A DNA stretch of 64,000 nucleotides from Escherichia coli (GTDB lineage: Bacteria; Pseudomonadota; Gammaproteobacteria; Enterobacterales; Enterobacteriaceae). The notes under the pieces are model-generated. The model ran no database searches. It had not been told where the DNA came from and worked only from the letters and a program-made list of their open reading frames with translations. Below are positions 42,785-64,000 of the stretch, in pieces (the first letter of the stretch is position 1; every line of letters begins with the position of its first letter). The DNA lies in the NCBI RefSeq assembly GCF_024298765.1, contig NZ_CP101210.1. One strand, given 5' to 3'. The translations under genes were made by a program, and so were the position numbers.

Positions 42785-42804
42785 GGCGATCACAGGAGTC
42801 GAAT
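42785..42804 (-). repeat. selC 3-prime-end-like att remnant (island distal boundary)
   Basis: ggcgatcacaggagtcgaat contains gatcacaggagtcgaa, the reverse complement of the tRNA-Sec 3-prime end ttcgactcctgtgatc (from memory of selC). Confidence 0.5.
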
Positions 42805-42938: not shown

Positions 42939-43781
42939 TTATGAAGGTAACACTCCCGGATAGTGTTTCGCAATAATATCATTCAGCCTGTCAACCAGTT
43001 CTGGTTTCCTGAACCTGATGTGCGCGGAGCCTTTCTTAAAGTATCTGATGCTGAACATCTCATCTTCATAGCATTCTTTACCCTGAACAGACCGGATGTG
43101 ATCATCCAGACGAATAGTGATGTTTTCCCGGTTGTCGGGGATCGGTTTACCGCTGAACAGGTGCAACATTCTTTCCAGATCGGCGAGTCGGTCAGCCTGT
43201 TGCCCGGTGATAAGATGAAATCCCCACCGGTCCCACCTTACCAGGTTGTTAATGATAATTTTACTGCCAAATTTACAGGGGCAATTAGTTTTGTAATTCC
43301 AGCTCAGTCCCCTGAAGACGTTGATCACCCCTCGCTCAAACACTTCATCTTTGTTCTGGTGCAGTTGTTTAAATGTGCTCAGAATGTTCGCTTCGCTGAT
43401 TTCCGGAAAATTATCGTATTCCAGTGACCGGTACCATGTCTCACGGGCCTGCGCATCCATTAATGACAGCATCCCGGAACGTTGCATCAGGTCACGCCAG
43501 ATTTCGCGATCGAGATTGCGGGTGATGGCTTTCATTGCCGTTTCAGGTTTTTCCATCAGCCAGCAACCACAGCGAAAATCCTGTTTCATCGCCCAGTCCA
43601 GTGCGGCTTTACCGTCAATACTTTCTGTCATTGCTGAGATTTCTGCCAGTTGCCGGGTAAGTGTGTCGATTTGCAGCAGCGTACTCTTTCGTACAGCCAG
43701 AATGTGGCGGATACTGGTTGAGCAGATAACGTCCGTATGCCCGTTGACCACTTCCGGACGGGGGGCTGTGATTTCAGACAT
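42939..43781 (-). CDS. hypothetical protein (DUF4942-like, terminal gene of CP4-type islands)
   Basis: 280-aa ORF; last gene of the minus-strand backbone block; family assignment from memory. Confidence 0.55.
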   Translation of the reverse strand: MSEITAPRPEVVNGHTDVICSTSIRHILAVRKSTLLQIDTLTRQLAEISAMTESIDGKAALDWAMKQDFRCGCWLMEKPETAMKAITRNLDREIWRDLMQRSGMLSLMDAQARETWYRSLEYDNFPEISEANILSTFKQLHQNKDEVFERGVINVFRGLSWNYKTNCPCKFGSKIIINNLVRWDRWGFHLITGQQADRLADLERMLHLFSGKPIPDNRENITIRLDDHIRSVQGKECYEDEMFSIRYFKKGSAHIRFRKPELVDRLNDIIAKHYPGVLPS

Positions 43782-43865
43782 AATCGATATTCCTTTTTGC
43801 AGATAAATGAAAACGCCTGCCCTGTTCAGGCTGGCGTCAGTGGAATGAAGTCTGGTGAGTAAGAC

Positions 43866-44288
43866 TCACCGGTTCTGGTACAGAAGCTGCAGTTGGCGCA
43901 GGGTACGGATATCCTCCCTGGCCTGTTCAATACAGGGCAACAGTGCTGCCGAATCCGTTTTGTCCTCATCGTTGTCAAAGATAATTTCCGATTCGCAGTC
44001 AATATTGTCCTGCAGCCACGCAATGAGGATATCCAGCGCTGTTTCAGTGGTTAATGGCATCACGCTCTGTATCACTGTATTGTCTTCCGGCAACTGATGA
44101 GGGCTGGCAGAAGTCGCCGGTGTTTCGGTAGCGTCATGTTCATCCACCACGCGGAGTGAATAACCGTTTTCAGCGACTTTGTTAATCAGTTCAGCGAGCT
44201 TAATACCATCGACGTCAACGACAATGCGCCCCATGTTCAGCGCCTGCGCATTAATGCTGTCGGCTTCCAGCGTCAGGGCCAGTTTCAT
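43866..44288 (-). CDS. YeeW-like protein
   Basis: 140-aa ORF immediately downstream of the CbtA-like toxin, with 4-bp overlap. Confidence 0.55.
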   Translation of the reverse strand: MKLALTLEADSINAQALNMGRIVVDVDGIKLAELINKVAENGYSLRVVDEHDATETPATSASPHQLPEDNTVIQSVMPLTTETALDILIAWLQDNIDCESEIIFDNDEDKTDSAALLPCIEQAREDIRTLRQLQLLYQNR

Positions 44289-44662
44289 TGTTTCGCCCCC
44301 GGATGTTTACCCAGGGTAATGTTATTTACCGTTCTGTAGTTGTCGCGTGTCATCAGGCCGGTTGCCCGGCGTGCCCGGAGGATATCAATACTGTTTATTA
44401 ACTGAGAACGGGTACAGGCGCTGAATCCCGGCTGGTCGGTACGTACCAGCGCGTATTTTTCAACGAGAAAGTTCACCGCATCACACAGTGAAATGCCCGC
44501 TTCAATATGCTGCTCAATCACACGTTCATCAGCGAACGGTGTGTCATTCAGCGCGAGGCCGTAGTGCTGGTCCAGTAACCGGGTGAGCAGTGTCTGCCAG
44601 ATGGTGACGGGAGACGGGCAGCACGATGCCTCCCGTACATGCGTGTCGGGTAATGTTTTCAT
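44285..44662 (-). CDS. cbtA: type IV toxin-antitoxin toxin, CbtA/YkfI/YpjF family
   Basis: 125 aa from MKTLPDTHVREASCCPSPVTIWQTLLTRLLDQHYGL...; strong match to remembered CbtA family sequence. Confidence 0.85.
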   Translation of the reverse strand: MKTLPDTHVREASCCPSPVTIWQTLLTRLLDQHYGLALNDTPFADERVIEQHIEAGISLCDAVNFLVEKYALVRTDQPGFSACTRSQLINSIDILRARRATGLMTRDNYRTVNNITLGKHPGAKQ

Positions 44663-44751
44663 AATGAAGATTTTCCTGATATGCAGAGATAAAAAATGGG
44701 ACAGTGGCGTGGTGAAAGCACCAGGCCGGAGCAGAAGGTTATTCTGGAGAG

Positions 44752-45120
44752 TTACTTTTTCGTTTCGGGCGTCGGATAAACAGCCATATAAACGTAGCCA
44801 CAACTGCCGAGGGTGTCGGCTTTGCAGGTCAGACCTTTTGCATACAGCGTGACGGTATGCTGATGGCGGGGATTCAGTTCACCGCTGGTGAGCATGAGTT
44901 CCAGTTGTTTCATCAGCAGCGGAAAGGCCTGGTCCAGGTGGTACGCATCTGCATCGCTGAACAGGCCTCTGATACCGGCGCGGTCGGCAAGGTAATGCAG
45001 GCGGTTACCCTCCTGCACCAGACGTGCCCCGAAACAGGGCGTCACGGTGCAGGGCAGCCCCCACCAGGGGCGGTCGTGATTGTCGTCGGGAAGCATTGTC
45101 CCGGAGAGTGCGTCTGACAC
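44752..45120 (-). CDS. cbeA: type IV toxin-antitoxin antitoxin, CbeA/YafW/YfjZ family
   Basis: 122 aa MSDALSGTMLPDDNHDRPWWGLPCTVTPCFGARLVQEGNRLHYLADRAGIRG...; directly upstream of toxin. Confidence 0.85.
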   Translation of the reverse strand: MSDALSGTMLPDDNHDRPWWGLPCTVTPCFGARLVQEGNRLHYLADRAGIRGLFSDADAYHLDQAFPLLMKQLELMLTSGELNPRHQHTVTLYAKGLTCKADTLGSCGYVYMAVYPTPETKK

Positions 45121-45282
45121 GATAAAATCCTCACAGAAAATCGGTTAAGAATGGTTTAACGATGACAGGTCAGCCGGCGCGCAGACCGCCTTCGGTAAAG
45201 GTGTATTCGTTTATGAGCAGGGCCTCATCCACAGCGGCGTCTGAGCTCAGCCAGTCGTACTCGTTTTCCGGGTGACGGAACA

Positions 45283-45504
45283 TCAGTTCAGGGTGACGCT
45301 CATCAGCCGGACATACGGGCCAAAACTGTCCTTACGACGTTCAGCAAACACGGCCAGCACACCGGGAATATCCTGTACTTCACGACCGGTATACGTCTCA
45401 GCACTGCCGTGCCAGCGGTACTTACCGGTGTAGAACGGAAAAAGACGGGATGCAGGATGTTGTTGGTGAATACGCATGGCTTCACCACGAGTGATAATTT
45501 TCAT
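45283..45504 (-). CDS. DUF987 protein (YeeT/YpjJ-like)
   Basis: 73 aa MKIITRGEAMRIHQQHPASRLFPFYTGKYRWHGSAETYTGREV... Confidence 0.75.
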   Translation of the reverse strand: MKIITRGEAMRIHQQHPASRLFPFYTGKYRWHGSAETYTGREVQDIPGVLAVFAERRKDSFGPYVRLMSVTLN

Positions 45505-45566
45505 AATGGGATACCTCTGAAGACAGAAGATAAAAGTGAAAACAGGTGTGATGTGGTTGTGACGGG

Positions 45567-46043
45567 TTAAAGCAGACCATGTTCGGCAAAGGAGAAAACC
45601 TGGTTGCCACCGACTATCAGATGGTCCGGCACCCGGATATCCACCAGGCCCAGTGCCTGTACCAGACGTTCGGTGATAAGCCGGTCTGCCTTACTGGGTG
45701 TGACTTCACCGGACGGGTGATTGTGCGCCAGCACCACGGCAGCGGCATTGTGGTACAGGGCGCGTTTAATCACTTCCCGGGGATGGACTTCCGTGCGGTT
45801 GATGGTGCCGGTGAAGAGGGTTTCACCGGCAATCAGCTGATTCTGGTTATTCAGATACAGTACCCGGAATTCTTCACGCTCCAGTCCCGCCATGTTCAGA
45901 ATCAGCCATTCCCGTGCCGCACGGGTGGAGGTGAAGGCCACGCCGGGTTCATGAAGATGACGGTCCAGGGTTTTCAGGGCCCGCTGAATAAGGCTGCGCT
46001 CGCCGGGCGTCATCGCTCCGGGCAGAAAGGAAAGCTGTTGCAT
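45567..46043 (-). CDS. RadC-like JAB-domain protein (YeeS/YkfG/YfjY family)
   Basis: 158 aa; JAMM motif HNHPSGEVTPSKAD. Confidence 0.85.
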   Translation of the reverse strand: MQQLSFLPGAMTPGERSLIQRALKTLDRHLHEPGVAFTSTRAAREWLILNMAGLEREEFRVLYLNNQNQLIAGETLFTGTINRTEVHPREVIKRALYHNAAAVVLAHNHPSGEVTPSKADRLITERLVQALGLVDIRVPDHLIVGGNQVFSFAEHGLL

Positions 46044-46054
46044 GGCCTCTCTCC

Positions 46055-46534
46055 TCAGTCAATGATGCGCATAATGGCGCTGCATTCCGGATGCTGCAGG
46101 GCGTAATCCCGCAGCCGGTAATAATGGACCGTCATGGCATAACACTCCGTACGACAGGCGTGATGACTGTACGTCATCAGACAGGCAGCAATGCCGGCGG
46201 CTTCCGGGCTCATTTCAGCGCGGTTACCGTTCATGGCACTGAACAGTACCCATGTTTCGTCATCATCGTCATCCGGTTCGGGTGCCATAAATGCGCCACC
46301 GTTGTTCAGGGTGTACAGATTCCAGATACCCCCGCAGTAGTCTTCACACAGACGGTCCATCCAGCCGAAGATACGGGGCTCCAGGGTCACCCACTGTGGA
46401 ATGAGGCCAAAATGCTGCGGCCAGAAGCTGATGCGCTGTTCATCAGGGACGAGGCTGGCAACCAGCTGAGGCGGATTATTCTCTGGTGTTGTAGCTGAAT
46501 AAATTGTGGGGGTATTCTGAGAAACGGTCTTCAT
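46055..46534 (-). CDS. antirestriction protein (ArdB/KlcA family, YfjX-like)
   Basis: 159 aa; acidic DDDDDE stretch; conserved position upstream of radC-like gene. Confidence 0.8.
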   Translation of the reverse strand: MKTVSQNTPTIYSATTPENNPPQLVASLVPDEQRISFWPQHFGLIPQWVTLEPRIFGWMDRLCEDYCGGIWNLYTLNNGGAFMAPEPDDDDDETWVLFSAMNGNRAEMSPEAAGIAACLMTYSHHACRTECYAMTVHYYRLRDYALQHPECSAIMRIID

Positions 46535-46615
46535 GAGATAACTCCTTAAATAACAAATAAATGTGTGTTTTTCAGGAACGAAAGCTGAATGATTCCCTCA
46601 CTCAGGGAAACGGCA

Positions 46616-47434
46616 TCAGCGCAGGCTCTCCAGCATCGTTTCTGCCATCACCCACAATGCGCGGTTGAGCTTAATGTCGGTATCAATGCTGTGAATGGCC
46701 CGGGTATGGATACGTTTTCCTCTGGCACTGCGCCCGGAAATCCCGCCTTTCAGCATATTCTCCTGGATGGTCTGATAAGCACTCCACAGGTCCTTACCGT
46801 AATCCTCCCGGCGTCGTGGTGTCAGAATGTCGGCGGTGGTGACGGGCTGATGTTCGTCACCATAACGGTAAGTCAGCGCCGCCTGTGCCAGCGCCTGGCG
46901 TGCCGGTGGCGGCAGGACCAGCGACTGCATGGCATCACGCTTCTCCTCTATCCGGTCAAACACGCCCACCACCTCGTAAGCCCCTTCAATGACTCTGTCC
47001 ACCACATTTCCCCGGTGCGGAACACGTACTTCCCCCAGAGACTGACCACAGACGCAGCCGTTCTGGCAGACGAACCTGAAGTACCCCGGCAGCATCTGGT
47101 AGCTGGAGGTACCGTCATGAGAGTTGAGCAGAATAATTTCAGGGACATGTTCTCCGTTTATCTCTCCGGCCCGCCGCAGACGCAGCATGTGTTTTGTGTA
47201 TTCCCGGCGGCTCTGGTCGCGCACACGGGTCTGGCAGGCGAAGAACGGCTGAAAGCCTTCCCGCTGCAGATTTTCCAGGACGGTGATGGTGGGAATGTAC
47301 GCATACCGTTCACTGCGGGAGGTGTGCCGGTCTTCTCCAAAAATACTCGGGACGTGGTACATCAGTTCTTCGCGTGTCAGTGGGCGCTCCCGACGGATCT
47401 GATTTACATGACCAAAACGACTGGCTAATTGCAT
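46616..47434 (-). CDS. DUF932 protein (YafZ/YfjQ-like)
   Basis: 272-aa ORF; conserved backbone position. Confidence 0.75.
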   Translation of the reverse strand: MQLASRFGHVNQIRRERPLTREELMYHVPSIFGEDRHTSRSERYAYIPTITVLENLQREGFQPFFACQTRVRDQSRREYTKHMLRLRRAGEINGEHVPEIILLNSHDGTSSYQMLPGYFRFVCQNGCVCGQSLGEVRVPHRGNVVDRVIEGAYEVVGVFDRIEEKRDAMQSLVLPPPARQALAQAALTYRYGDEHQPVTTADILTPRRREDYGKDLWSAYQTIQENMLKGGISGRSARGKRIHTRAIHSIDTDIKLNRALWVMAETMLESLR

Positions 47435-47472
47435 ACTTTGCTCCTTATGAATGAATTAGCGGTATAAACGAA

Positions 47473-47500
47473 AAGGCCGCGTCTCCCGGAGAAGACGCGG
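47473..47500. other. intercistronic GC-rich stem-loop
   Basis: ggccgcgtct-cccggaga-agacgcggcc: perfect 10-bp stem between the DUF905 and DUF932 genes. Confidence 0.5.
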
Positions 47501-47523
47501 CCTGATGGATGAAATGAAGACGT

Positions 47524-47757
47524 TTATTGCCTGAGAATTCCCTCACTGGCGAGATACGAATTTAGCTGTTTTCCGGCATCAGGTTCAAAATTCCAGCACC
47601 GCCAGCGTAGCTGCCCTTCGGCATTGCGGATAACCAGCCGGAAATGCGTTCCCTGGTCATCCTCAATAAGCACATTGCGGTAAGCTGTTGTGACGGCAAC
47701 CGCCTGTTCGCGTGAGAAAGGGCCTTCGGGCAATAAAACAGGGTGGCAGTCCGACAT
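47524..47757 (-). CDS. DUF905 small protein
   Basis: 77-aa [51 protein letters not shown]... Confidence 0.65.
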
Positions 47758-47762
47758 ACCGG

Positions 47763-48440
47763 CTATTTTCCGATAAATTCAACGCTGGCGCCGGTGGCAT
47801 TACCGTCAGCACCAACCGTGACGGTCACTTTGTCGTACGCACGGTCTTCAGGATTGAATACTTCAAACTCAACCTTATTGCCTTTTACTTCGTAAGAGCC
47901 AAAATCAGCGGTTTCTGTTGTTTCCTCGTCATATTCCCGGGCGTATGCCTGCCGGGCAGCCTGCAGGACGGAATCTTTATTAATAGTGGTCGTCTGTTTC
48001 GGGGAAAAACCGGCAAGTGATGTGACAAATTTCGGACAGACCTTCAGCATATCACCGCGGGTGAATTCCATTCGTACACCAAATGCCTGTAAAACGGACA
48101 CATCACGCTCTGCTATGGAGTGAACGGCTTTTTTGACCATTTCCGGCGCCTGTCCGATTTCCACCTCAACAGCCCTGAATCCCGTCTGCTGATTACACAT
48201 TTGTGATGTGGGGATCAGGTTACCGTTAATACTGATACGGCTGCCCAGGAGCGTCTGTACACCATTCGGGCATCCCTGCATCAGGCCGGTAATACCAATC
48301 GTGCCATTTTTCAGCATTACCAGCGCCTGACCATCTTCCGTCATGGTCTGACACCAGCCGTTTTTGACAGCCCAGTTGCCGGCGGAGGCGGAGAATGATG
48401 CCACAGTGAACAGCAGGGGAAAAAGAGCTCTGGTATTCAT
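47763..48440 (-). CDS. secreted/periplasmic protein of unknown function
   Basis: 225 aa from [20 protein letters not shown] (signal peptide); GAGG Shine-Dalgarno upstream. Confidence 0.55.
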
Positions 48441-48587
48441 GACTGACCTCTGAAATGAACGTACGGTGTTATTGATAATGATGGAAGGTATGCAGTGACT
48501 GTTCAGGGAATGACGTAGCCGTATATTTAGTTTTCTGTTCAACATATTGTCTCCATACCTGTCGGGACGGCTTTGGCAGGCCGGCGA

Positions 48588-49268
48588 TCACAGGTTAAAG
48601 GTGTTGATAAGTTTATGGATGAAAGAGAAATGTGGCAGGGCGGAGATAAAACGCTCTTCAGCGACCAGACTGTGGATGTGGCCTCTCCGTTCAAACCGTT
48701 CTGATGTCAGGCTGACTGATTTGATATCTGCCAGAGGAAAGACCTGCAGTTTTCCCTTCTGTAACGCGATCAGATACCAGCTACCGCTGTAATAAATGAG
48801 CCGGCAGGGCTCCAGTGACGGATACCATCGCTCAGTCATCAGAGAGATGTGGATACACTGTCTTATTGCCAGGATGAGTTGCGAGAAACACTCGGGGAAC
48901 GTTGCAGTGATATCCGGCGCCGGTAGCCAGATAAGGCAGGGAGAGGGCTCCTGGTTGTCGGTAAGACAGGTTATCAGTCGTCCGTTCCGGAGCGGAAGTA
49001 TCCGTGCGATCCCGGTATTCTGTATAAAAGAAAGCATTTCAGGGATCGCACCTGGGCTGCTCTGTCGTCTGAGGCTGTACCTGCCATTTCTGTACTCTAA
49101 ATCCAGGTGAACCAGACGCTGATGAAAATCGCGCTGTAAAGTACGTTCTGTAACGCCAAATTCATCTGACAGTGTTTTTAGTGACAGAGATTCTCCGGCC
49201 ATCAGTCGGCTGATAATGAGTGATAAGCGAACCGCCAGGCGATCATGCCGGGAACGATTATCAGACAT
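48588..49268 (-). CDS. HTH plus WYL-domain transcriptional regulator (YfjR-like)
   Basis: 226 aa; N-terminal DeoR-type HTH (KTLSDEFGVTERTLQRD); C-terminal WYL-like region. Confidence 0.65.
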   Translation of the reverse strand: MSDNRSRHDRLAVRLSLIISRLMAGESLSLKTLSDEFGVTERTLQRDFHQRLVHLDLEYRNGRYSLRRQSSPGAIPEMLSFIQNTGIARILPLRNGRLITCLTDNQEPSPCLIWLPAPDITATFPECFSQLILAIRQCIHISLMTERWYPSLEPCRLIYYSGSWYLIALQKGKLQVFPLADIKSVSLTSERFERRGHIHSLVAEERFISALPHFSFIHKLINTFNL

Positions 49269-49470
49269 AGATGTGCACTCCGTAAGAAAACATCTTTTAT
49301 TTCATGATGTTATTATGCATCATGATGTTGAAAGGATGTGTCGCATCCGGATAATCAGGAATAAAATGCAGCAGAAAAAATATTCTTTTAATTATCTGAT
49401 TTTTAAGCATGATTTCATAAAAAGAAGAATGCTCGTTAATCCAGCGACACATCCTGTCGGCGTGAGTGTG

Positions 49471-50355
49471 TCAGAACAGACGCTCCCACAGTGTGATCAG
49501 CAGGTGGATAATGCGGTCCCGGGCTTTACGCAGAAGCTGTAACATCCAGGCCGGAAAACTGAACCGGGCAACGGCGTCGTCAAAACTTTTCCCGATGGCA
49601 TCACCAAAAGTCTGTTGTGCGTGTTTCCGGGCCTGTTCAGAGCGGTTTTCCCCCCTGATATGTGAATAAACTGCGCTGGTTGCCTGTGGTGGCAGCGCGT
49701 GGATCATCAGTGACACCAGCGCTGGAAGGTTCCAGCCTGCAGGTGCGGCTACAGGGAGTACCGGAAATGATGAAGGGAACAGGGTGGCCACCCGGGCTGT
49801 TACTGTCGCCAGTGAGAGTTCCTGGTGACGGGACGGGCATTTTTCTGTGGCATTCCATTCTTCAGCAGGAAACATGCGATCGGCATGGCTGAGAACAAAC
49901 AGAAAGCGCGAGGGATCTGCGCCCTCATTCAGTAAAAACTGATGCATGGCAATATCGGCAGCATACGCACGTTCATCACTCCGCAGGATCCAGATAATCA
50001 GATCCAGTTCCGGCAGTAACTGACGATAAAGCGCTCGGTATTCCTGATCATGCTGCGGTGTTTCACCAATGCCGGGCAGATCGACCAGCGTCATTCTGCG
50101 TTCACCGAGCTGCAGGGTAAGACGATGAGCCTGGCGGGTGCAGCCGTTCAGGGGATGCGTGGCGCAGATACGGGACTGAAAAATGGCATTACACAGGCTG
50201 CTCTTGCCGGTGCCGGATTTACCCATAATGCCAATCACGGGCTCGTAATGAATAACACCGTGGAGATGTTCAAGGATTTTCTGGCGTATTTCTTCAGGAA
50301 GAAACGTCAGATATGATTTCACTTGCGCGGAGAGGGAAGAATTGCTGAATGGCAT
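49471..50355 (-). CDS. GTPase (YfjP/YkfA/YeeP family)
   Basis: 294 aa; P-loop GKSGTGKSS, DLPG switch, ribosome-associated GTPase-like. Confidence 0.8.
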   Translation of the reverse strand: MPFSNSSLSAQVKSYLTFLPEEIRQKILEHLHGVIHYEPVIGIMGKSGTGKSSLCNAIFQSRICATHPLNGCTRQAHRLTLQLGERRMTLVDLPGIGETPQHDQEYRALYRQLLPELDLIIWILRSDERAYAADIAMHQFLLNEGADPSRFLFVLSHADRMFPAEEWNATEKCPSRHQELSLATVTARVATLFPSSFPVLPVAAPAGWNLPALVSLMIHALPPQATSAVYSHIRGENRSEQARKHAQQTFGDAIGKSFDDAVARFSFPAWMLQLLRKARDRIIHLLITLWERLF

Positions 50356-50455: not shown

Positions 50456-51679
50456 ATGGCTAAAAACAAAGGTATTTGTCGGAATAAAAAATGCAGTAAT
50501 CCTGTTTCAGAATTTGATGAGGCAAATGCCTTAAGGTTATGCGATGATCATTATAAGCTATGGAAGCGAAATAAAGAGAATCGTCGGGTCAGGAATATTT
50601 GTCGTATAATCAGTAAATATGACAAAAGTCTGGACCGGGAGATATTTTATGGAGTAAGAGATGCTGCAAAAAATAAAACGGGAAAGAGAATTATTGAGGA
50701 CGCAAAAATATTACATCAATGCCGTGCCTCAAAGCAAGTAAGAAAAAGTTTTCACAAGGGTGTGCTTCGGTCACGGGAATGGCTTAATACACAGGAGTTA
50801 CTGAGCAGAAAACATATATCTGTTACAGGTGAACTATTTAAATTTTACATAAAAGATATTATCAGATTATATTGCTATAAGTTTCTCTACAGCAGAGAAT
50901 ATCTTAATGAAAACGCATACAAAAAACGATATCAGAGTGATATTCACCCCAGAAAAGTTAATGTTCCGATACTGCAACTTGAAGTTGCATGGATAAATAA
51001 TAATTGCCGTTCAAGTGATTCAAGCACTGATATTATTATCCTTCCGAGGATGATAAGAAGAATGGTTGTATTTAATTATACGAAGATAAATAAACAATTA
51101 GAGAAATTGTTAGGGGGGATAGCACGAAAACAAACCTCAGAAAGGAATAAAGGCGGTCTCTATACCAGAATAAAAAAAGAAAGTGACTTTCTTTCTATGG
51201 ATAGATTTATGGTGGAAATAGAAAATATCATAAGGCCTGAAAGGTTTCCGACATCAATTTATCCAGTCTTTTCACATTCATTTATTGAACGAGAGCTTCC
51301 GCTACTGAATCTTGCTCGATCACAGTATAAAAGAGCAATAAGTAAAAAAGTGGCGAATTCAATTTTTTATACTTTGCAAAAAACTAACGTAGCATTATGG
51401 CTACATCTTGAAATGTTTGCTCTGGTGGCATTCATTAAACTGTATACAGGAAAAGGTTTTGAATTCATAAAAAACATGTGTGCATTTATCGATTATAATA
51501 ATGGGATAATAAAATCCACACATGAAGAACTACTGGGTGAAATTAAGCATAACATTCAGGTTAATTTGAAGGTGAACCCTGATAATTTTCCTGAGCTAAT
51601 AAATATATACAATTCATGTTTTAGTAAAAATATATTTTTATATGATATTAATGATGGTAATTTTAAATGGTGTTCATGA
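50456..51679 (+). CDS. hypothetical protein, Lys-rich with N-terminal Cys/His cluster (candidate novel defense/abortive-infection gene)
   Basis: 407-aa ORF; purine-rich RBS; very AT-rich codon usage; C8-x4-C13...C29-x2-H32; divergent from GTPase gene. Confidence 0.6.
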   Translation: MAKNKGICRNKKCSNPVSEFDEANALRLCDDHYKLWKRNKENRRVRNICRIISKYDKSLDREIFYGVRDAAKNKTGKRIIEDAKILHQCRASKQVRKSFHKGVLRSREWLNTQELLSRKHISVTGELFKFYIKDIIRLYCYKFLYSREYLNENAYKKRYQSDIHPRKVNVPILQLEVAWINNNCRSSDSSTDIIILPRMIRRMVVFNYTKINKQLEKLLGGIARKQTSERNKGGLYTRIKKESDFLSMDRFMVEIENIIRPERFPTSIYPVFSHSFIERELPLLNLARSQYKRAISKKVANSIFYTLQKTNVALWLHLEMFALVAFIKLYTGKGFEFIKNMCAFIDYNNGIIKSTHEELLGEIKHNIQVNLKVNPDNFPELINIYNSCFSKNIFLYDINDGNFKWCS

Positions 51680-52842: not shown

Positions 52843-53373
52843 TTAAGCTACATTGTTGTTATGACTGACAGGATTGTTTTCTTCCCCTGACTCTGGGCTT
52901 AACAGTCCCTGGCGTTGTAGATATTCACTGACTGACATTCCAGAACTACGGATCCTGTCAGAGATTTTACGAAATTGATCCTTCCATTCTGCAGGTAATT
53001 TCTTAATTTGTCTGACTTTACAGGCTACACTGTACGGGGTTCGCCCTAGTTTCTCTGCCAGCCAGAAAAGGTGTTTACCAATTTCATCGTCCGGTACATC
53101 CTCCAGAACATCTCGCAATAAACTCTCGTCTGCCTCATTCCATGCCACACCAGCATTTGGGAAACGAGGATCGATCTCTCTTTCCTTCTTCTCCTTCTTA
53201 CTTTGCTCTTTTCGGGATGATACAGATACGACAGAACGTTCTTTTACCGCTGTAATTGCCATAACTGCATTGAGCAGAGATCTGCGCTCCACATCGTTCA
53301 GCATTTTTCCTTCACAGATCAAATCATTCAGGATGTCAATGACTAGATTCAGACTTTCTTCTGTTAGCTTCAT
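52843..53373 (-). CDS. hypothetical protein with putative HTH
   Basis: 176-aa ORF; AAGG RBS 8 nt upstream; charged KE-rich linker; HTH-like LAEKLGRTPYSVACKVRQIKK. Confidence 0.55.
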   Translation of the reverse strand: MKLTEESLNLVIDILNDLICEGKMLNDVERRSLLNAVMAITAVKERSVVSVSSRKEQSKKEKKEREIDPRFPNAGVAWNEADESLLRDVLEDVPDDEIGKHLFWLAEKLGRTPYSVACKVRQIKKLPAEWKDQFRKISDRIRSSGMSVSEYLQRQGLLSPESGEENNPVSHNNNVA

Positions 53374-54042: not shown

Positions 54043-54774
54043 ATGAATCAACCAATACACAATGATTACTGGTTATCCCGTTTTGAAAGTATTCTCAACA
54101 GTGCCCTGGTGCAACACCGTGCCGTCTCGTTAATCCGGGTGGATTTACGTTTCCCTGAGCATATGCCTGTCACCATCATGGATCCCGATCCGGATTCAGC
54201 GGTGATTTCTCGTTTTTTCGAATCCCTGAAAGCCAAAATTCAGGCTTACCAGCGGAAAAAACGACGTACCAACAAGCGTGTGCGTGCAACCACCCTGCAT
54301 TATTTCTGGTGTCGAGAGTTTGGCAAGGAAAAAGGCAGGAAACATTATCACGTGATATTACTGCTCAACAAAGATACCTGGTGCTCGCCAGGGGATTTCA
54401 CCGTTCCTTCTTCGCTGGCGACGCTGATCCAACTGGCATGGTGTAGCGCTCTGCATCTTGAGCCCTGGCAGGGTAATGGACTGGTTCATTTTTCCAGGCG
54501 GACGCCTTTCCGTAAACCGGCATCATCTGATGCTCGCCCTTCTTCCGATGATACGCCTTTGTCGGGTGGATGTTCTGAAACCAGGAAGGCTTCAGACAAA
54601 AAGCCGGGTGAAGCCGCTGTTCTCTGGATCAAGCGTGGTGATGTGGAAGCGATGCAGAAAGCCATGGAGAGAGCCCGTTATCTCGTGAAGTATGAGACGA
54701 AGCAGCATGACGGTTCTGGTCAACGTAATTATGGTTGCAGCCGTGGAGCGGGGCGTCTACTGGATGGCAGGTGA
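54043..54774 (+). CDS. inovirus Gp2-like replication-associated protein (YagK/YfjJ family)
   Basis: 243 aa; HYHVILLL motif region; family assignment from memory. Confidence 0.65.
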   Translation: MNQPIHNDYWLSRFESILNSALVQHRAVSLIRVDLRFPEHMPVTIMDPDPDSAVISRFFESLKAKIQAYQRKKRRTNKRVRATTLHYFWCREFGKEKGRKHYHVILLLNKDTWCSPGDFTVPSSLATLIQLAWCSALHLEPWQGNGLVHFSRRTPFRKPASSDARPSSDDTPLSGGCSETRKASDKKPGEAAVLWIKRGDVEAMQKAMERARYLVKYETKQHDGSGQRNYGCSRGAGRLLDGR

Positions 54775-61097: not shown

Positions 61098-62085
61098 TTT
61101 AATTTAGGTTTATTACTATTATTATACTTACTCTCTTTTTTACATGACCTCAATCTTTACGATTATATTCACTCTATCTTTACACATTCCATTACTCTTA
61201 TCCTCATCCAATTATATTCATGTCCTTCTCTAATCTTCCTTGTCACCATTATCATAATATCCACTTCTTCCCTCATTCAATCATAATTACTGTAATTCAT
61301 ACGTTACTCAGATAAGTTATTCTCTACAGCTACGCTATTGTTGATATCCATCTGTTCTCATTTTCAGTGAAACAGTAATTGATTTTAATTTATCCATCAT
61401 GAACTGTATTTGCTTAACAATGATTGTTTATCTGAAGTGTTTTAACTATTCTGGTTGGAAACAATTTCTCTGTCATCAAAGATTAACTGAATGTTTACTC
61501 TTTGATAAGGTATCCATGGTTCCGTCATGTTTAACAGCGCAGGATAAACAACAGAATTAACAGAGTGAATTTCTGATTATATTTGTTGCCGGTTGTATTG
61601 TTTAAGGTACTGGGTGAAAATTATTCATCCATTGTATGTTGTCTTATGCTATCGTGTGTCGTTAACGTTCATATCCTGGAAAACAGATTGAATAAGCGCG
61701 TGTGAGTTTATTGTGGTGACCTTATAAACGTTTTTTCAGACTCACTGAGAGCAAATTTACAAATCATGAGCTTATAGTTGTAATATGTTTCCTAACCGCC
61801 TGGCAGCGGGATTACAGTTCGTATTTTTCTGTATTTCACTGTGTTGTATTGAATCTGTATTTTCTTCGCACCTCGTTTATCTCATCTCTATAGACAATGC
61901 CATCAGATAACTCATACCCTTCAGCACAACGCTGTGTGTCGTTAATAATCCGTCGTATCCATTCTGTTACAGCATGCCTGATAAATACCATCTGTAAGTT
62001 ATTACCGTTTTAGATCTGATTATGAGCGAAAGCATTAATTCGCTCACAGAGCTTAAAACATCATTAACTTTCAGGAGTCATCAAC
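61098..62085. other. about 1 kb ORF-free AT-rich spacer with G-depleted tract
   Basis: No ORF of 60 aa or more on either strand; 61108-61300 is pyrimidine-rich on the plus strand with about six G. Confidence 0.6.
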
Positions 62086-62652
62086 ATGCCTAAATCTTAC
62101 ACACCAAACTGGTTTTTTACCGCTTTACTTGACAATCACATCAATCAAATGATGGCACGCTATTCCTGCCTGCGGGCCTTACGGATGGATTTCTTCTACA
62201 GGAAGGATACGCCTGATTTCTTACAACCTGATCATCGTTGGCTTGAATTACAACTGCGTATGCTGCTGGAGCAGGTTGAACAGTTTGAAAATATGGTTGG
62301 CTTCTTCTGGGTGATTGAATGGACGGTTGATCATGGTTTTCATGCGCATGTGGTCTTCTGGCTCGATCGTCAGAGGGTTAAAAAAATATATCCCTTTGCG
62401 GAGCGGATTACGGAATGCTGGCGGTCTATTACGCATAACAGCGGTTCGGCACACCGCTGTACATATCAGCCGCATTATACATACAACATCAACATTCCTG
62501 TGCGCCACAACGATCCTGAAAGCATCGATAATATTCGCGGTGCCCTGCATTATCTGGCAAAAGAAGAGCAAAAAGACGGGCTGTGTGCCTACGGCTGCAA
62601 TGAAGTTCCTGAACGTCCTGCTGCAGGGCGTCCTCGTAAGCCTCACTTCTGA
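62086..62652 (+). CDS. inovirus Gp2-like protein (YagK/YfjJ family paralogue)
   Basis: 188 aa; FHAHVVFWLDRQ motif region analogous to HYHVILLLNKD of the 54043 gene. Confidence 0.6.
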   Translation: MPKSYTPNWFFTALLDNHINQMMARYSCLRALRMDFFYRKDTPDFLQPDHRWLELQLRMLLEQVEQFENMVGFFWVIEWTVDHGFHAHVVFWLDRQRVKKIYPFAERITECWRSITHNSGSAHRCTYQPHYTYNINIPVRHNDPESIDNIRGALHYLAKEEQKDGLCAYGCNEVPERPAAGRPRKPHF

Positions 62653-62701
62653 AGCTTAAATCCTGAGCTTCCTGTCCTGGAAACATTCCGTCGGTAAAAC
62701 C

Positions 62702-62744
62702 TTACCGCCTTGCTTAATGATGTGAACTGAAGTCAACGGAGATC
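62702..62744. repeat. conserved leader element (copy 2)
   Basis: See copy 1 at 53988-54035. Confidence 0.55.
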
Positions 62745-62909
62745 ATTCACTCTGAACCACATCCGGTGTTCTGTCCCTTGTCGGTGACCTGATCTTCCCG
62801 TTCTGCCCCGGTTCTTCACTTATTCCATCAACCCCATCCGCAAACCATAACACGTCAGCTTATTCACGGGCAGGACGCATTGTGGGCTGCGCATAACGGA
62901 GCATATCTT

Positions 62910-63482
62910 ATGAATGCTATCCCTTATTTCGACTATAGCCTGGCCCCCTTCTGGCCATCTTATCAGAACAAAATCATCGGCGTTCTCAACCGTGTGTTGC
63001 GCGAGCAGTCCTGCTCCCGAATACGGCGGATCCTGCTTCGTCTGCCGGGGGAACATGGCAACATCTTCAGCGACAGAAAAACCTGGTTCGGTATGGCCTT
63101 TATCGAAACCGTCAGTGCGCTGATGAATGCAACACCCGGACGTGACCTCTGCTGGCTCCTGACACGTCATCCTGAAAAACCGGAATACCACGTGGTGCTG
63201 TGCGTCAGACAGGAGTATTTCGACGGCCCTGAACTGGATCGGCTGATTCTGGATGCCTGGAGCAACGTACTGGGCTTCGCATCACCGGGTGAAGCAGCAC
63301 CGTACCAGAAGCAGATCACCCGGGATGTGGTGCTGGACAGTTGTTCACCGGACTGCGAAGAGAGACTCAAAGAGCTGATATGGGCGTTCAGTGATTTCGC
63401 CCGCGATCGTCGTGGTGTGCGCGATCCGGAAGCCCGTTACCTCGCCGGTAATCCCTGGTATCCCGTAGCAGGCCAGCTCTGA
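62910..63482 (+). CDS. hypothetical protein, possible third Gp2-like paralogue
   Basis: 190 aa from MNAIPYFDYS; GGAG RBS; EYHVVLCVRQEYF motif. Confidence 0.5.
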   Translation: MNAIPYFDYSLAPFWPSYQNKIIGVLNRVLREQSCSRIRRILLRLPGEHGNIFSDRKTWFGMAFIETVSALMNATPGRDLCWLLTRHPEKPEYHVVLCVRQEYFDGPELDRLILDAWSNVLGFASPGEAAPYQKQITRDVVLDSCSPDCEERLKELIWAFSDFARDRRGVRDPEARYLAGNPWYPVAGQL

Positions 63483-63550
63483 AAGCTCAGCTCAGCAGAT
63501 TCACCCGCATTTGCCCAACATTCATAAATCTCACAGAGGACATTCTGACC

Positions 63551-63787
63551 ATGTTGACCTCAATGACAGGTCACGACAGCGTATTGCTGCGTGCCGACGA
63601 TCCCCTGATCGACATGAACTACATCACCAGCTTCACTGGTATGACCGACAAATGGTTTTACAAGCTGATCAGTGAAGGCCATTTCCCTAAACCCATCAAA
63701 CTGGGGCGCAGCAGCCGCTGGTACAAAAGTGAAGTGGAGCAGTGGATGCAGCATCGAATCGAGGCATCACGAGGGGCAGCAGCATGA
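63551..63787 (+). CDS. AlpA-family prophage regulatory protein (excisionase-like HTH)
   Basis: 78 aa; ...ITSFTGMTDKWFYKLISEGHFPKPIKLGRSSRWYKSEVEQWM resembles AlpA/Xis-type HTH. Confidence 0.7.
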   Translation: MLTSMTGHDSVLLRADDPLIDMNYITSFTGMTDKWFYKLISEGHFPKPIKLGRSSRWYKSEVEQWMQHRIEASRGAAA

Positions 63788-64000
63788 AACGTGTTGTAAT
63801 GCCGGTACGCTGGCAATGTGCAAAATACCAGCGTTGGTATTGTGGAAATCAGCCCTGTCCCTGGTGCTGGCGACATTTACGTTCATCTTCTTGCAGACAT
63901 TCTCCAGTCAGCCAGCAGGTTGTAGCTCTTCCTGACTGATTCGTCATTCCATTCTTATTGATTATAACTGGCATTACACCGGTGCTGGCGTGCTTTCCTG

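Follow-up and report, generated by a model that had tools for sequence, protein, structure and literature searches.

Toward the right end of the window (the whole 64,000-nucleotide stretch of Escherichia coli DNA analyzed here), two Gp2-like genes are followed by a gene for an AlpA-like regulator. The initial annotation took this trio for an integrase-proximal module with the gene order of the int-alpA-yfjI/yfjJ end of CP4-57, raising the question of where in its element the block lies and what its proteins might do there. Here, our analysis revealed that the three genes are real and conserved and together make up an ordinary piece of the backbone of a large genomic island at the E. coli selC locus. 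We consider it probable that they belong to an internal, ~4-kb backbone block of a ~90-kb mosaic island, a block predicted to combine an AlpA-type switch, a nicking enzyme and non-catalytic paralogs.

Position and orientation of the block in the selC island

All three open reading frames lie on the plus strand as first described, and the span given for ORF2 is right, its RefSeq start being the ATG at 62910 (Table 1). The block opens with an AT-rich leader, after which come ORF1, ORF2, the AlpA-like gene and a doubtful small ORF; it continues just past the window with another YagK-like gene, the third of its kind and degenerate, and with a ProQ/FinO-family gene in convergent orientation. What lies beyond position 64,000 was read not from the window itself but from near-identical genomes, which show 6 mismatches in 24 kb.

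Table 1. Features of the block and of the surrounding island (positions beyond 64,000 refer to near-identical genomes).
Feature	Position	Strand	Description
Candidate distal repeat	42788..42803		16-bp copy of the selC 3′ end, GATCACAGGAGTCGAA; exact k-mer common with tRNA-Sec at 133375, NZ_CP058874.1
tRNA-distal conserved block	42939..50355	-	DUF4942, DUF957, DUF5983, CbtA/CbeA, DUF987, RadC/JAB, antirestriction, DUF932, DUF905, HTH, GTPase (annotation of near-identical genome)
Gp2-243	54043..54774	+	Classical 243-aa "inovirus Gp2 family" paralog, same backbone; HYH, YLVK intact
IS elements	54.9-61.0 kb		IS256 and IS3 pseudogenes and IS2, directly upstream of the block
Leader of ORF1	61351..62085	+	Non-coding, AT-rich (32-42% GC), conserved; composition profile, four-island alignment
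Leader hairpin	62023-62046		8 bp, ~40 nt before ORF1 start
ORF1	62086..62652	+	188 aa, WP_001126822.1; YagK/YfjJ / REP_ORF2-G2P ("inovirus Gp2") HUH-type protein (predicted)
ORF2	62910..63482	+	190 aa, WP_000991576.1, RefSeq "hypothetical protein"; divergent YfjJ-like paralog
ORF3	63551..63787	+	78 aa, WP_000958152.1; AlpA/Vis/TorI-family winged-helix DNA-binding protein
Small ORF (doubtful)	63784..63939	+	Overlaps ORF3 stop (ATGA); annotated elsewhere as 41-52 aa hydrophobic peptide
YagK-like gene	just past window		183 aa, degenerate
ProQ/FinO-family gene	just past window		Convergent
Second YagK-like/ProQ pair	91.1-92.2 kb		Frameshifted copy
Integrase	131,883-133,067	-	P4-type, 40% identical to IntA
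tRNA-Sec (selC)	133,367-133,461	-	

Rightward extension into these genomes recovered a P4-type integrase and the selC tRNA, so that the downstream side lacks neither an integrase nor a tRNA. The expectation that both would be found beyond the window was thereby borne out as to their existence. However, they lie ~69 kb from ORF3 on the opposite strand, with fec, pgt, PTS and autotransporter genes and numerous IS genes in between, and the integrase has IS1 rather than alpA as its neighbor, which does away with the integrase-proximal placement. Block and integrase are convergent, the block reading on the plus strand and the integrase, selC and the tRNA-distal block on the minus strand. The proposed match to the gene order of the CP4-57 end likewise fails: the order here is Gp2-like, Gp2-like, AlpA, Gp2-like (the last one just past the window) in the opposite orientation, and tblastn of the 100-kb region, using K-12 YfjI as the query (E < 1e-3), found no YfjI homolog in the island. 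No tRNA was detected in the window between 40 and 64 kb.

At the other end of the island, the 16-bp copy of the selC 3′ end is, as judged from its sequence, likely to be the distal boundary repeat of a ~90.6-kb island. The block lies ~19 kb from this tRNA-distal end, and its Gp2/AlpA genes are divergent from the GTPase-antirestriction-RadC-CbtA block and read toward the integrase, with cargo in between. Within the block, a promoter and terminator consensus scan revealed no operon structure (counts at or below shuffle expectation), an Rfam search (E ≤ 1) returned no RNA family, and PADLOC, with only a weak HTH match, did not make the block part of any defense system.

Gp2-like and AlpA-like proteins of the block

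The proposed identities of the three proteins hold on the evidence of Pfam, motifs and, for ORF2, profiles. As a direct HMM check, the result was divided: the AlpA match exceeds its cut-off, whereas ORF1 falls below both Gp2-related cut-offs and the direct Pfam match of ORF2 to the Gp2-like family reaches E = 0.29 only. ORF1, which RefSeq names a YagK/YfjJ domain-containing protein, scores 23.8 bits against PF11726 (YagK_YfjJ_C; cut-off 25.8) and 24.8 bits against PF23343 (REP_ORF2-G2P; cut-off 27.8), both with E < 1e-4, and both families are precomputed for its 95%-identical cluster (P0065) and for many homologs. The motifs of ORF1 are intact (E78, H86-A-H88 and Y156-L-A-K159) and correspond in the alignment to HYH and Y..K of YfjJ and of the 243-aa paralog, Gp2-243. 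Across 28 homologs from several genera, E78, H88, Y156 and K159 are invariant and the HxH/YxxK set is invariant or nearly so. HUH Reps are among the fold matches of ORF1, and its dN/dS against homologous islands is 0.08–0.14. ORF1 is thus predicted from its sequence to be an HUH-type, nickase-type enzyme. Gp2-243 scores 126 bits against PF11726 and 37 bits against PF23343 and matches phage replication-initiator PHROGs; ORF1-like genes are nearly absent from phages (2 of 50,697 records). In pairwise BLASTP among ORF1, ORF2, the 183-aa paralog, Gp2-243 and YfjJ, the sole match was between ORF1 and YfjJ (E = 0.006).

Since hhalign between the ORF1 and ORF2 families was negative, the homology of ORF2 was shown by way of P0197, a 36%-identical relative (E = 4e-15) that scores 41.8 bits against PF11726 (cut-off 25.8), and by an ORF2-family HMM, which scores 40.3 bits against K-12 YfjJ. 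The AF2 model of ORF2 (pLDDT 73.7) has the same order of secondary-structure elements as ORF1, and its top named BFVD matches comprise Inovirus Gp2 (probability 1.00, TM 0.56), microvirus Rep and parvovirus NS1, all of them with weak E-values (1e-3 to 1e-2). By this transitive, profile and fold evidence, ORF2 belongs to the YfjJ family. Its active-site motifs are lost: E-Y-H stands in place of H-x-H, the first His being replaced by Glu, the Glu at the "VIEWT" position is missing, and a motif alignment of multiple paralogs places an invariant Asp (SDFARDR) at the position of the catalytic Tyr. The Tyr of "ARYLAG" was also considered as the catalytic residue and ruled out, as it varies (Y/C/H) and the catalytic position is taken in the alignment by the invariant Asp. 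We therefore predict ORF2 to be a non-catalytic, pseudo-HUH protein. Its dN/dS against homologous islands is 0.16–0.30. Overall, among four Gp2-like paralogs, two have lost the catalytic residues and are still conserved: ORF2 and the YagK-like protein of 183 aa.

ORF3 clearly belongs, by sequence, to the AlpA family. It scores 40.8 bits against PF05930 (Phage_AlpA; gathering score 21, E = 2e-10) and matches phrog_2790, "excisionase and transcriptional regulator" (E = 4.5e-10), while its best PDB sequence matches are 8c3t, an "AlpA family phage regulatory protein" (E = 0.0012), and TorI, 1z4h (E = 0.018). Identity to K-12 AlpA is 23% (E = 1e-5), and NCBIfam searches with the ORFs gave excisionase matches below threshold only. 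The dN/dS of ORF3 against homologous islands is 0.06–0.16. By analogy with its relatives, ORF3 is a putative transcription activator and/or recombination directionality factor (RDF). Between the selC and pheV islands, identity is ~95% for the AlpA-like proteins and only 42% for the integrases, which argues against a strictly cognate RDF–integrase pair and favors a transcriptional role or modular exchange.

The flanks of the three genes differ in how well they are kept. Inter-island homology begins at 61.1–61.35 kb; the leader has a mean identity of 88% in the four-island alignment, its final ~180 nt being almost invariant, and the RNA fold of 61986–62088 has z = -4.9, a stability that none of 200 shuffled sequences reached. 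Upstream of the ORF1-like genes of Enterobacter, Xenorhabdus, a metagenomic element and a plasmid copy, the leader hairpin is not kept, and it was therefore dropped as a family-wide origin. On the other flank, DNA alignment revealed that a 26-bp insertion (~63805–63830) shifts the frame of the small ORF, whose translation is unrelated to the other copies, these being weakly constrained themselves (dN/dS 0.36–0.44). We regard it as a doubtful or disrupted gene. Its Cys-rich, 51-aa product was considered as a zinc ribbon and ruled out as a frameshift product of the same insertion.

Recurrence of the block and its possible roles

The block is present in ~2,700 of 5,426 complete E. coli genomes, and with identical copies of its proteins in dozens of genomes and RefSeq accessions and family names already assigned, it is a routine, already annotated island backbone. 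In other E. coli tRNA islands it recurs at 86–94% identity with the same layout, including the pheV island, where it holds the same internal position 46 kb from the integrase, and the islands of O157 ATCC 43888, strain 1435 and strain 83972. Its orientation relative to the GTPase block is the same in the pheV island, 83972, Klebsiella and Enterobacter; the smaller Klebsiella and Enterobacter islands carry AlpA, then an ORF1-like gene, then defense cargo, divergent from the GTPase block. In a Xenorhabdus island, an ORF1-like gene is followed by cargo and a convergent integrase 6.5 kb away, and an E. coli plasmid carries an alpA-yfjI-Gp2 cluster.

As to how such a block might work, the AlpA-family protein would serve as the DNA-binding switch of the island, activating transcription and/or promoting integrase-mediated excision by analogy with CP4-57, CP4So and ROD21, and silencing of the H-NS type, acting on the AT-rich leader, probably keeps expression low. 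The predicted role of ORF1 is to use Tyr156 for nicking the island's single-stranded DNA, by which the excised circle would begin to replicate in rolling-circle mode or to be transferred. ORF2 and the 183-aa paralog, which keep the fold without the catalytic residues, are probably non-catalytic DNA-binding partners or modulators. In the searchable literature we found no experimental work on any YagK/YfjJ protein, and nicking, replication and mobilization are for this reason purely inferred.

A more far-reaching proposal, which we put forward only tentatively and hold to be rather unlikely, is that the AlpA-like protein, ORF1 and the two dead paralogs constitute a post-excision DNA-processing system for large tRNA-associated genomic and defense islands of Enterobacterales. 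Such a system would act in rolling-circle replication or helper-dependent mobilization of islands, and the ProQ/FinO-family neighbor, together with the structured, near-invariant leader of ORF1, could provide FinOP-like RNA control.

It appears improbable that the AlpA-like protein is only a local activator or antiterminator of the co-directional downstream genes (paralog and cargo), in the manner of AlpA in phage-inducible islands, with no role in excision, and that the Gp2-like proteins regulate by binding DNA and have no enzymatic role. The near-identity of AlpA-like proteins across islands with divergent integrases is in line with such a role, as are the conservation of the two catalytically dead paralogs, the Klebsiella and Enterobacter AlpA genes, which head a co-directional gene string into the cargo, and the description of AlpA as an activator in papers on islands and satellites. 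However, AlpA homologs are experimentally established excisionases in CP4So and ROD21, and ORF1 and Gp2-243 keep all catalytic residues across genera, a pattern not easily accounted for unless they are active enzymes.

About equally improbable, in our estimate, is that the block is what survives of the integrase-proximal end of another, independently acquired island that was either inverted or added in tandem; its int and att would have been lost through IS-mediated rearrangement, and the present internal position of the block would be accidental. The surroundings offer some hints of this kind: IS2 and IS pseudogenes immediately precede the block, the island is strongly mosaic and contains the second, frameshifted YagK-like/ProQ copy, integrase fragments adjoin related Enterobacter islands, and in strain 83972 the segment 54874–62666 is absent, so that Gp2-243 directly adjoins ORF2 (junction at 62667). 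An accidental position is nevertheless at odds with the constant placement and orientation of the block toward the GTPase block in the pheV, O157, 1435 and 83972 islands, with the same layout in compact Klebsiella and Enterobacter islands without intervening IS elements, and with purifying selection on all three genes.

The original placement next to the integrase is very unlikely indeed, for although CP4-57 and the plasmid-borne cluster both pair AlpA with Gp2-like genes, and selC and a P4-type integrase do exist downstream, the distance, strand and IS1 neighbor of that convergent integrase, the differing gene order without YfjI, and the internal position that the block keeps in other islands all stand against it. 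A phage-inducible chromosomal island (PICI) or P4-like satellite was ruled out, as no primase, rep-helicase, packaging or capsid gene was found within the block or around it in the inspected loci; the island size (~90 kb) and the near-absence of ORF1-like genes from phage records also disfavor it.

These results correct the position and orientation of the module, which is internal and convergent with the integrase, and assign the "hypothetical" ORF2 to the YfjJ family as a predicted pseudo-enzyme. They further place an AlpA/Gp2 block beside the GTPase-antirestriction block in several enterobacterial genera, with cargo, often defense genes, before the integrase. If the HUH proteins do process excised island DNA, this would bear on the movement of non-conjugative pathogenicity and defense islands; a post-excision system, if real, would provide a function for the uncharacterized YagK/YfjJ family and explain the spread of islands without conjugation genes.

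Comparison with known systems

HUH rolling-circle initiators (PF23343; parvovirus NS1/Rep, microvirus and cressdnavirus Rep) are among the fold matches of ORF1 and ORF2. ORF1 has in common with them the metal-binding motif Glu/His-x-His and the motif Tyr-x-x-Lys, carried by a putative beta-alpha-beta-beta-alpha-beta core. Unlike these initiators, ORF1 and ORF2 are only ~190 aa long, with no helicase or other domain, and ORF2 lacks the catalytic residues.

Among island regulators, AlpA of CP4So is required for excision and is silenced by H-NS (PMC5148205), and SEN1998 of ROD21, of the EARL family, is a distal AlpA/TorI-like RDF that binds both att regions (PMC8844411). Like the selC AlpA-like protein, SEN1998 is small, has a winged helix and belongs to the AlpA/TorI family, and its gene is part of the conserved core of a family of enterobacterial islands (PMC8844411). 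RDF and integrase phylogenies agree in EARL, whereas the selC AlpA-like protein does not track its integrase, and no Gp2-like partner is described for EARL.

With CP4-57 of E. coli K-12 (ssrA-intA-yfjH-alpA-yfjI-yfjJ ... yfjP ... ypjF), the selC island shares a P4-type integrase, the linkage of an AlpA-family regulator to YfjJ-type (Gp2-like) genes and the same distal GTPase/DUF932/antirestriction/RadC/toxin-antitoxin block. In CP4-57, however, transcription of intA, alpA, yfjI and yfjJ runs uniformly away from the tRNA, and 1.2 kb separates alpA from intA. The selC module, by contrast, has the opposite orientation to both its integrase and the distal block, is separated from that integrase by ~69 kb and has no yfjI. 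Three or four Gp2-like paralogs flank its alpA, and its AlpA-like protein is only 23% identical to that of K-12.

In the jumbo-phage-transduced Pseudomonas tmRNA islands I23, I44 and I55, a Gp2-like gene and then alpA stand at the end opposite the integrase (PMC12595487). By their description, these islands resemble the selC island in having a RadC and HTH core with variable defense cargo in between (PMC12595487), and they differ in genus, in integration site and in having alpA as the terminal gene. In the SRL PAI of Shigella flexneri, orf39 (YfjJ/Gp2), orf40 (Hha) and orf41 (Vis/AlpA) lie upstream of the orf46 GTPase gene (PMC6980539). Although the order there is Gp2-Hha-AlpA, and extra YfjI and Gp2 genes adjoin its integrase, this island shares with the selC island an internal Gp2-like and AlpA/Vis-like pair near the GTPase block, far from the integrase, as well as fec cargo (PMC6980539).

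Gene content and protein families

The three plus-strand genes that the initial annotation placed at 62086-63787 were confirmed, each being preceded by a Shine-Dalgarno-like sequence. When they were compared with their homologs in three other islands, dN/dS was 0.08-0.14 for ORF1, 0.16-0.30 for ORF2 and 0.06-0.16 for ORF3, and all three are thus real genes under constraint. The window starts with dnaA, followed by dnaN, recF and gyrB, and several complete E. coli chromosomes match its 61,900-64,000 stretch at 100% identity and at the same coordinates. As a stand-in for all sequence past 64,000 we used NZ_CP058874.1, which differs from window 40,001-64,000 at 6 of 24,000 positions; the gene content described there is presumed from this near-identical proxy genome, and a second near-identical genome, APEC E12049, displayed the same genes downstream.

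Positions of the three genes in the window and of the tRNA and integrase genes in the proxy genome
Feature	Position	Strand	Description
ORF1	62086-62652	+	188 aa; RefSeq: YagK/YfjJ domain-containing protein
ORF2	62910-63482	+	190 aa from RefSeq ATG; RefSeq: hypothetical protein
ORF3	63551-63787	+	78 aa; RefSeq: helix-turn-helix transcriptional regulator
Tyrosine integrase	131,883-133,067 (proxy)	-	proxy annotation
tRNA-Sec gene	133,367-133,461 (proxy)	-	proxy annotation

ORF3 had been called AlpA-like, in agreement with its score of 40.8 bits against Pfam Phage_AlpA (cut-off 21). Its PHROG match is annotated as 'excisionase and transcriptional regulator'; the solved structures nearest to it by sequence are 8c3t (an AlpA-family protein), TorI and RdfS, and K-12 AlpA shares 23% identity with it (E = 1e-5). 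On these sequence relationships, ORF3 can be placed securely in the AlpA/Vis/TorI winged-helix family.

ORF1 falls slightly below the Pfam cut-offs for REP_ORF2-G2P (24.8 vs 27.8) and YagK_YfjJ_C (23.8 vs 25.8), the two domains to which its homologs are assigned. These homologs, sharing 39-95% identity with it, occur in Escherichia, Salmonella, Citrobacter, Enterobacter, Klebsiella, Serratia and Xenorhabdus under names that include 'inovirus-type Gp2' and 'rolling circle replication-associated protein'. Across an alignment of 28 ORF1-family sequences, Glu78, His88, Tyr156 and Lys159 are invariant and His86 nearly so, which is the Glu/HUH/YxxK signature of HUH endonucleases, and the AlphaFold model is confident (pLDDT 86.9). 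Retention of all HUH catalytic residues across genera argues for a nicking activity. ORF1-like genes are nearly missing from phages (2 of 50,697 records), and are found mostly on large plasmids with other replicons.

ORF2 gave a faint direct Pfam match (E = 0.29) and matched ORF1 neither by BLASTP nor in a profile-profile comparison of the two families; its near relatives are almost all E. coli 'hypothetical proteins' without a Pfam domain. An exhaustive HMMER search recovered two distant full-length relatives. The distant relative P0197 (36% identity to ORF2, E = 4e-15) scored 41.8 bits against YagK_YfjJ_C (cut-off 25.8), and an HMM combining the ORF2 family with both distant relatives detected K-12 YfjJ at 40.3 bits and Gp2-243, a 243-aa 'inovirus Gp2 family' paralog, at 22.3 bits. 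The ORF2 model (pLDDT 73.7) has the same helix/strand order as ORF1, its top named viral-structure matches being 'Inovirus Gp2', a microvirus replication initiator and parvovirus NS1. Together, the P0197, HMM and structural evidence thus upholds the proposal of two Gp2-like genes. In a multi-paralog alignment, which brought the motifs into register, ORF2 carries E-Y-H in place of H-x-H, is missing the Glu and has an invariant Asp (W-A-F-S-D-F-A-R-D-R) at the catalytic Tyr position, and we predict it to be a conserved pseudo-enzyme. The motifs of Gp2-243 (54043-54774) are intact, and a 183-aa YagK-like gene just past the window (64,053-64,601 in the proxy) has lost every one.

Position within the selC island

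Foreign DNA in the proxy genome begins after yicL, and window 42788-42803, between yicL and a DUF4942 gene, exactly repeats 16 bp (GATCACAGGAGTCGAA) of the selC 3' end. This repeat is the probable distal boundary of a selC island that, measured from there to the tRNA-Sec gene, would span ~90.6 kb. The start of ORF1 is ~19 kb from the repeat. The expectation that selC and an integrase lie further downstream therefore holds in the proxy genome, but the description 'integrase-proximal' does not, since ~69 kb separate the end of ORF3 from the integrase. This interval contains a third YagK-like gene (the 183-aa one), a ProQ/FinO gene, an H-NS paralog, a dGTPase fragment and hlyE, as well as the fec and pgt loci, PTS and transketolase genes, a YadA-like adhesin, an autotransporter and many IS; the integrase's own neighbour is IS1. 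ARAGORN predicted no tRNA gene within window 40-64 kb, and tblastn across the 100-kb region found neither a second AlpA gene nor a YfjI homolog.

The degenerate 183-aa YagK-like gene and the ProQ/FinO gene form a convergent pair that is present twice in NZ_CP058874.1, at 64,053-65,099 and at 91,143-92,213, the latter copy showing 78% protein identity and frameshifts in both genes. Between the GTPase gene and Gp2-243 lie two conserved hypothetical genes, 50456-51679 (+; 407 aa, no PADLOC match) and 52843-53373 (-; 176 aa), both of which were found again in a pheV island.

Recurrence of the block and its leader

BLASTN comparisons revealed that ~3.9 kb, from ~61.1-61.35 kb to 65.25 kb, is kept at 86-90% identity in three other islands. 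This block comprises an AT-rich leader, ORF1, ORF2, the AlpA-like gene, a small ORF, the YagK-like gene and the ProQ/FinO gene, and in a fourth island (strain 83972) most of it is present, from ORF2 on. Matches occur in ~2,700 of 5,426 complete E. coli genomes, with at least 80% of the block covered in 1,536. In GZ04-0083, the block lies inside a pheV island with the same distal block (GTPase-antirestriction-RadC-CbtA genes) and Gp2-243 and with different cargo on both sides, the integrase and tRNA-Phe being 46 kb away on the opposite strand. Two further carriers are O157:H7 ATCC 43888 and strain 1435, neither with a complete integrase gene annotated within 9 kb of the block; in the former, GTPase and Gp2-243 genes lie upstream. 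In 83972, Gp2-243 directly adjoins ORF2, and the 7.8-kb segment 54874-62666 (IS2, ireA, IS256 and IS3 pseudogenes, the leader and ORF1) is missing, which suggests either that Gp2 paralog regions have recombined or that cargo was inserted here. On these comparisons, the block is a widespread, already annotated internal backbone unit of enterobacterial tRNA islands.

In other genera, ORF1 homologs sit in a more compact form of this layout. Klebsiella and Enterobacter carry minus-strand antirestriction, DUF905, DUF932 and GTPase genes (in Enterobacter additionally DUF5983, CbeA and RadC) and, divergent from these, a plus-strand AlpA gene, next the plus-strand ORF1-like gene and after it defence cargo, for instance type I R-M and an OLD-family nuclease. 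Directly after the ORF1-like gene lie, in the other genera, type I R-M, an OLD-family ATPase-nuclease, or DUF6361 with a helicase; in Xenorhabdus, a convergent integrase follows the cargo, 6.5 kb away. The islands of these three genera resemble carriers of defence cargo. AlpA, an ORF1-like gene and the ORF2-like P0197 are also linked on a metagenomic element, and a plasmid-borne copy has the CP4-57-like order alpA-yfjI-Gp2. The Klebsiella, Enterobacter, metagenomic and plasmid cases thus indicate that the AlpA-Gp2 linkage is general.

The ORF1 leader is AT-rich (32-42% GC), and its last ~180 nt (61900-62085) hardly vary across islands and exceed the coding regions in conservation. The 3' part folds into an extended hairpin (z = -4.9; core stem 62023-62046) ~40 nt 5' of the start codon, in which one G-to-T change in one island would keep a G-U pair on the plus-strand RNA. 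Most ORF1 homologs of other genera lack this structure upstream. Rfam (E <= 1) matched no RNA family in the block, and PADLOC assigned it to no defence system, giving just a weak HTH hit. Given the block's ProQ/FinO-family gene, RNA-level control is conceivable. Separately, the small ORF overlapping the alpA stop (ATGA) carries, just past its start, a 26-bp insertion (~63805-63830) relative to three other islands. The insertion creates a short palindrome and shifts the frame, replacing a hydrophobic 41-52 aa peptide with an unrelated Cys-rich 51-aa product.

Putative functions and relation to known islands

AlpA-family proteins act as excisionases and/or activators. Between the selC and pheV islands, the AlpA-like proteins differ at ~4 of 78 residues (~95% identity), whereas the integrases share only 42% identity, so the backbone block has a history separate from that of the integrase module; this contrast speaks against a strictly cognate role as RDF. 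For ORF1, we infer that the most likely use would be to start rolling-circle replication or mobilisation of the excised island circle. No origin or nick site was identified for it, and our literature search found no experiment on YagK, YfjJ or Gp2-like proteins. Should HUH proteins indeed process or replicate excised island DNA, the block would gain greater significance.

Excision of CP4So needs AlpA, whose promoter is silenced by H-NS, and excision of CP4-57 is induced by Hha (PMC5148205). Several islands have genes for H-NS or Hha paralogs close to the block, and the ORF1 leader is AT-rich, making it plausible that nucleoid proteins silence the block at this leader. In ROD21, the AlpA-like RDF SEN1998 binds both att regions (PMC8844411).

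The initial annotation had likened the module to the integrase-proximal end of CP4-57, a likeness that fails in distance, orientation and gene order. K-12 CP4-57 reads ssrA, intA(+), yfjH(-), alpA(+), yfjI(+), yfjJ(+), then yfjP onward to ypjF(+), all listed genes but yfjH pointing away from the tRNA. In the selC island, the integrase and the yfjP-ypjF homologs (42.9-50.4 kb) are on the minus strand and ORF1-ORF3 on the plus strand, so the module is inverted relative to that layout; it is also far from the integrase, without yfjI and differently ordered. Published parallels are found elsewhere: the SRL PAI has orf39 (YfjJ/Gp2), orf40 (Hha) and orf41 (Vis/AlpA), with the GTPase gene orf46 a few ORFs further downstream (PMC6980539), and Pseudomonas tmRNA islands carry the integrase at one end and Gp2-like and alpA genes at the other (PMC12595487). 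The selC island has the distal form, convergent with the integrase, of the general AlpA-Gp2 linkage.
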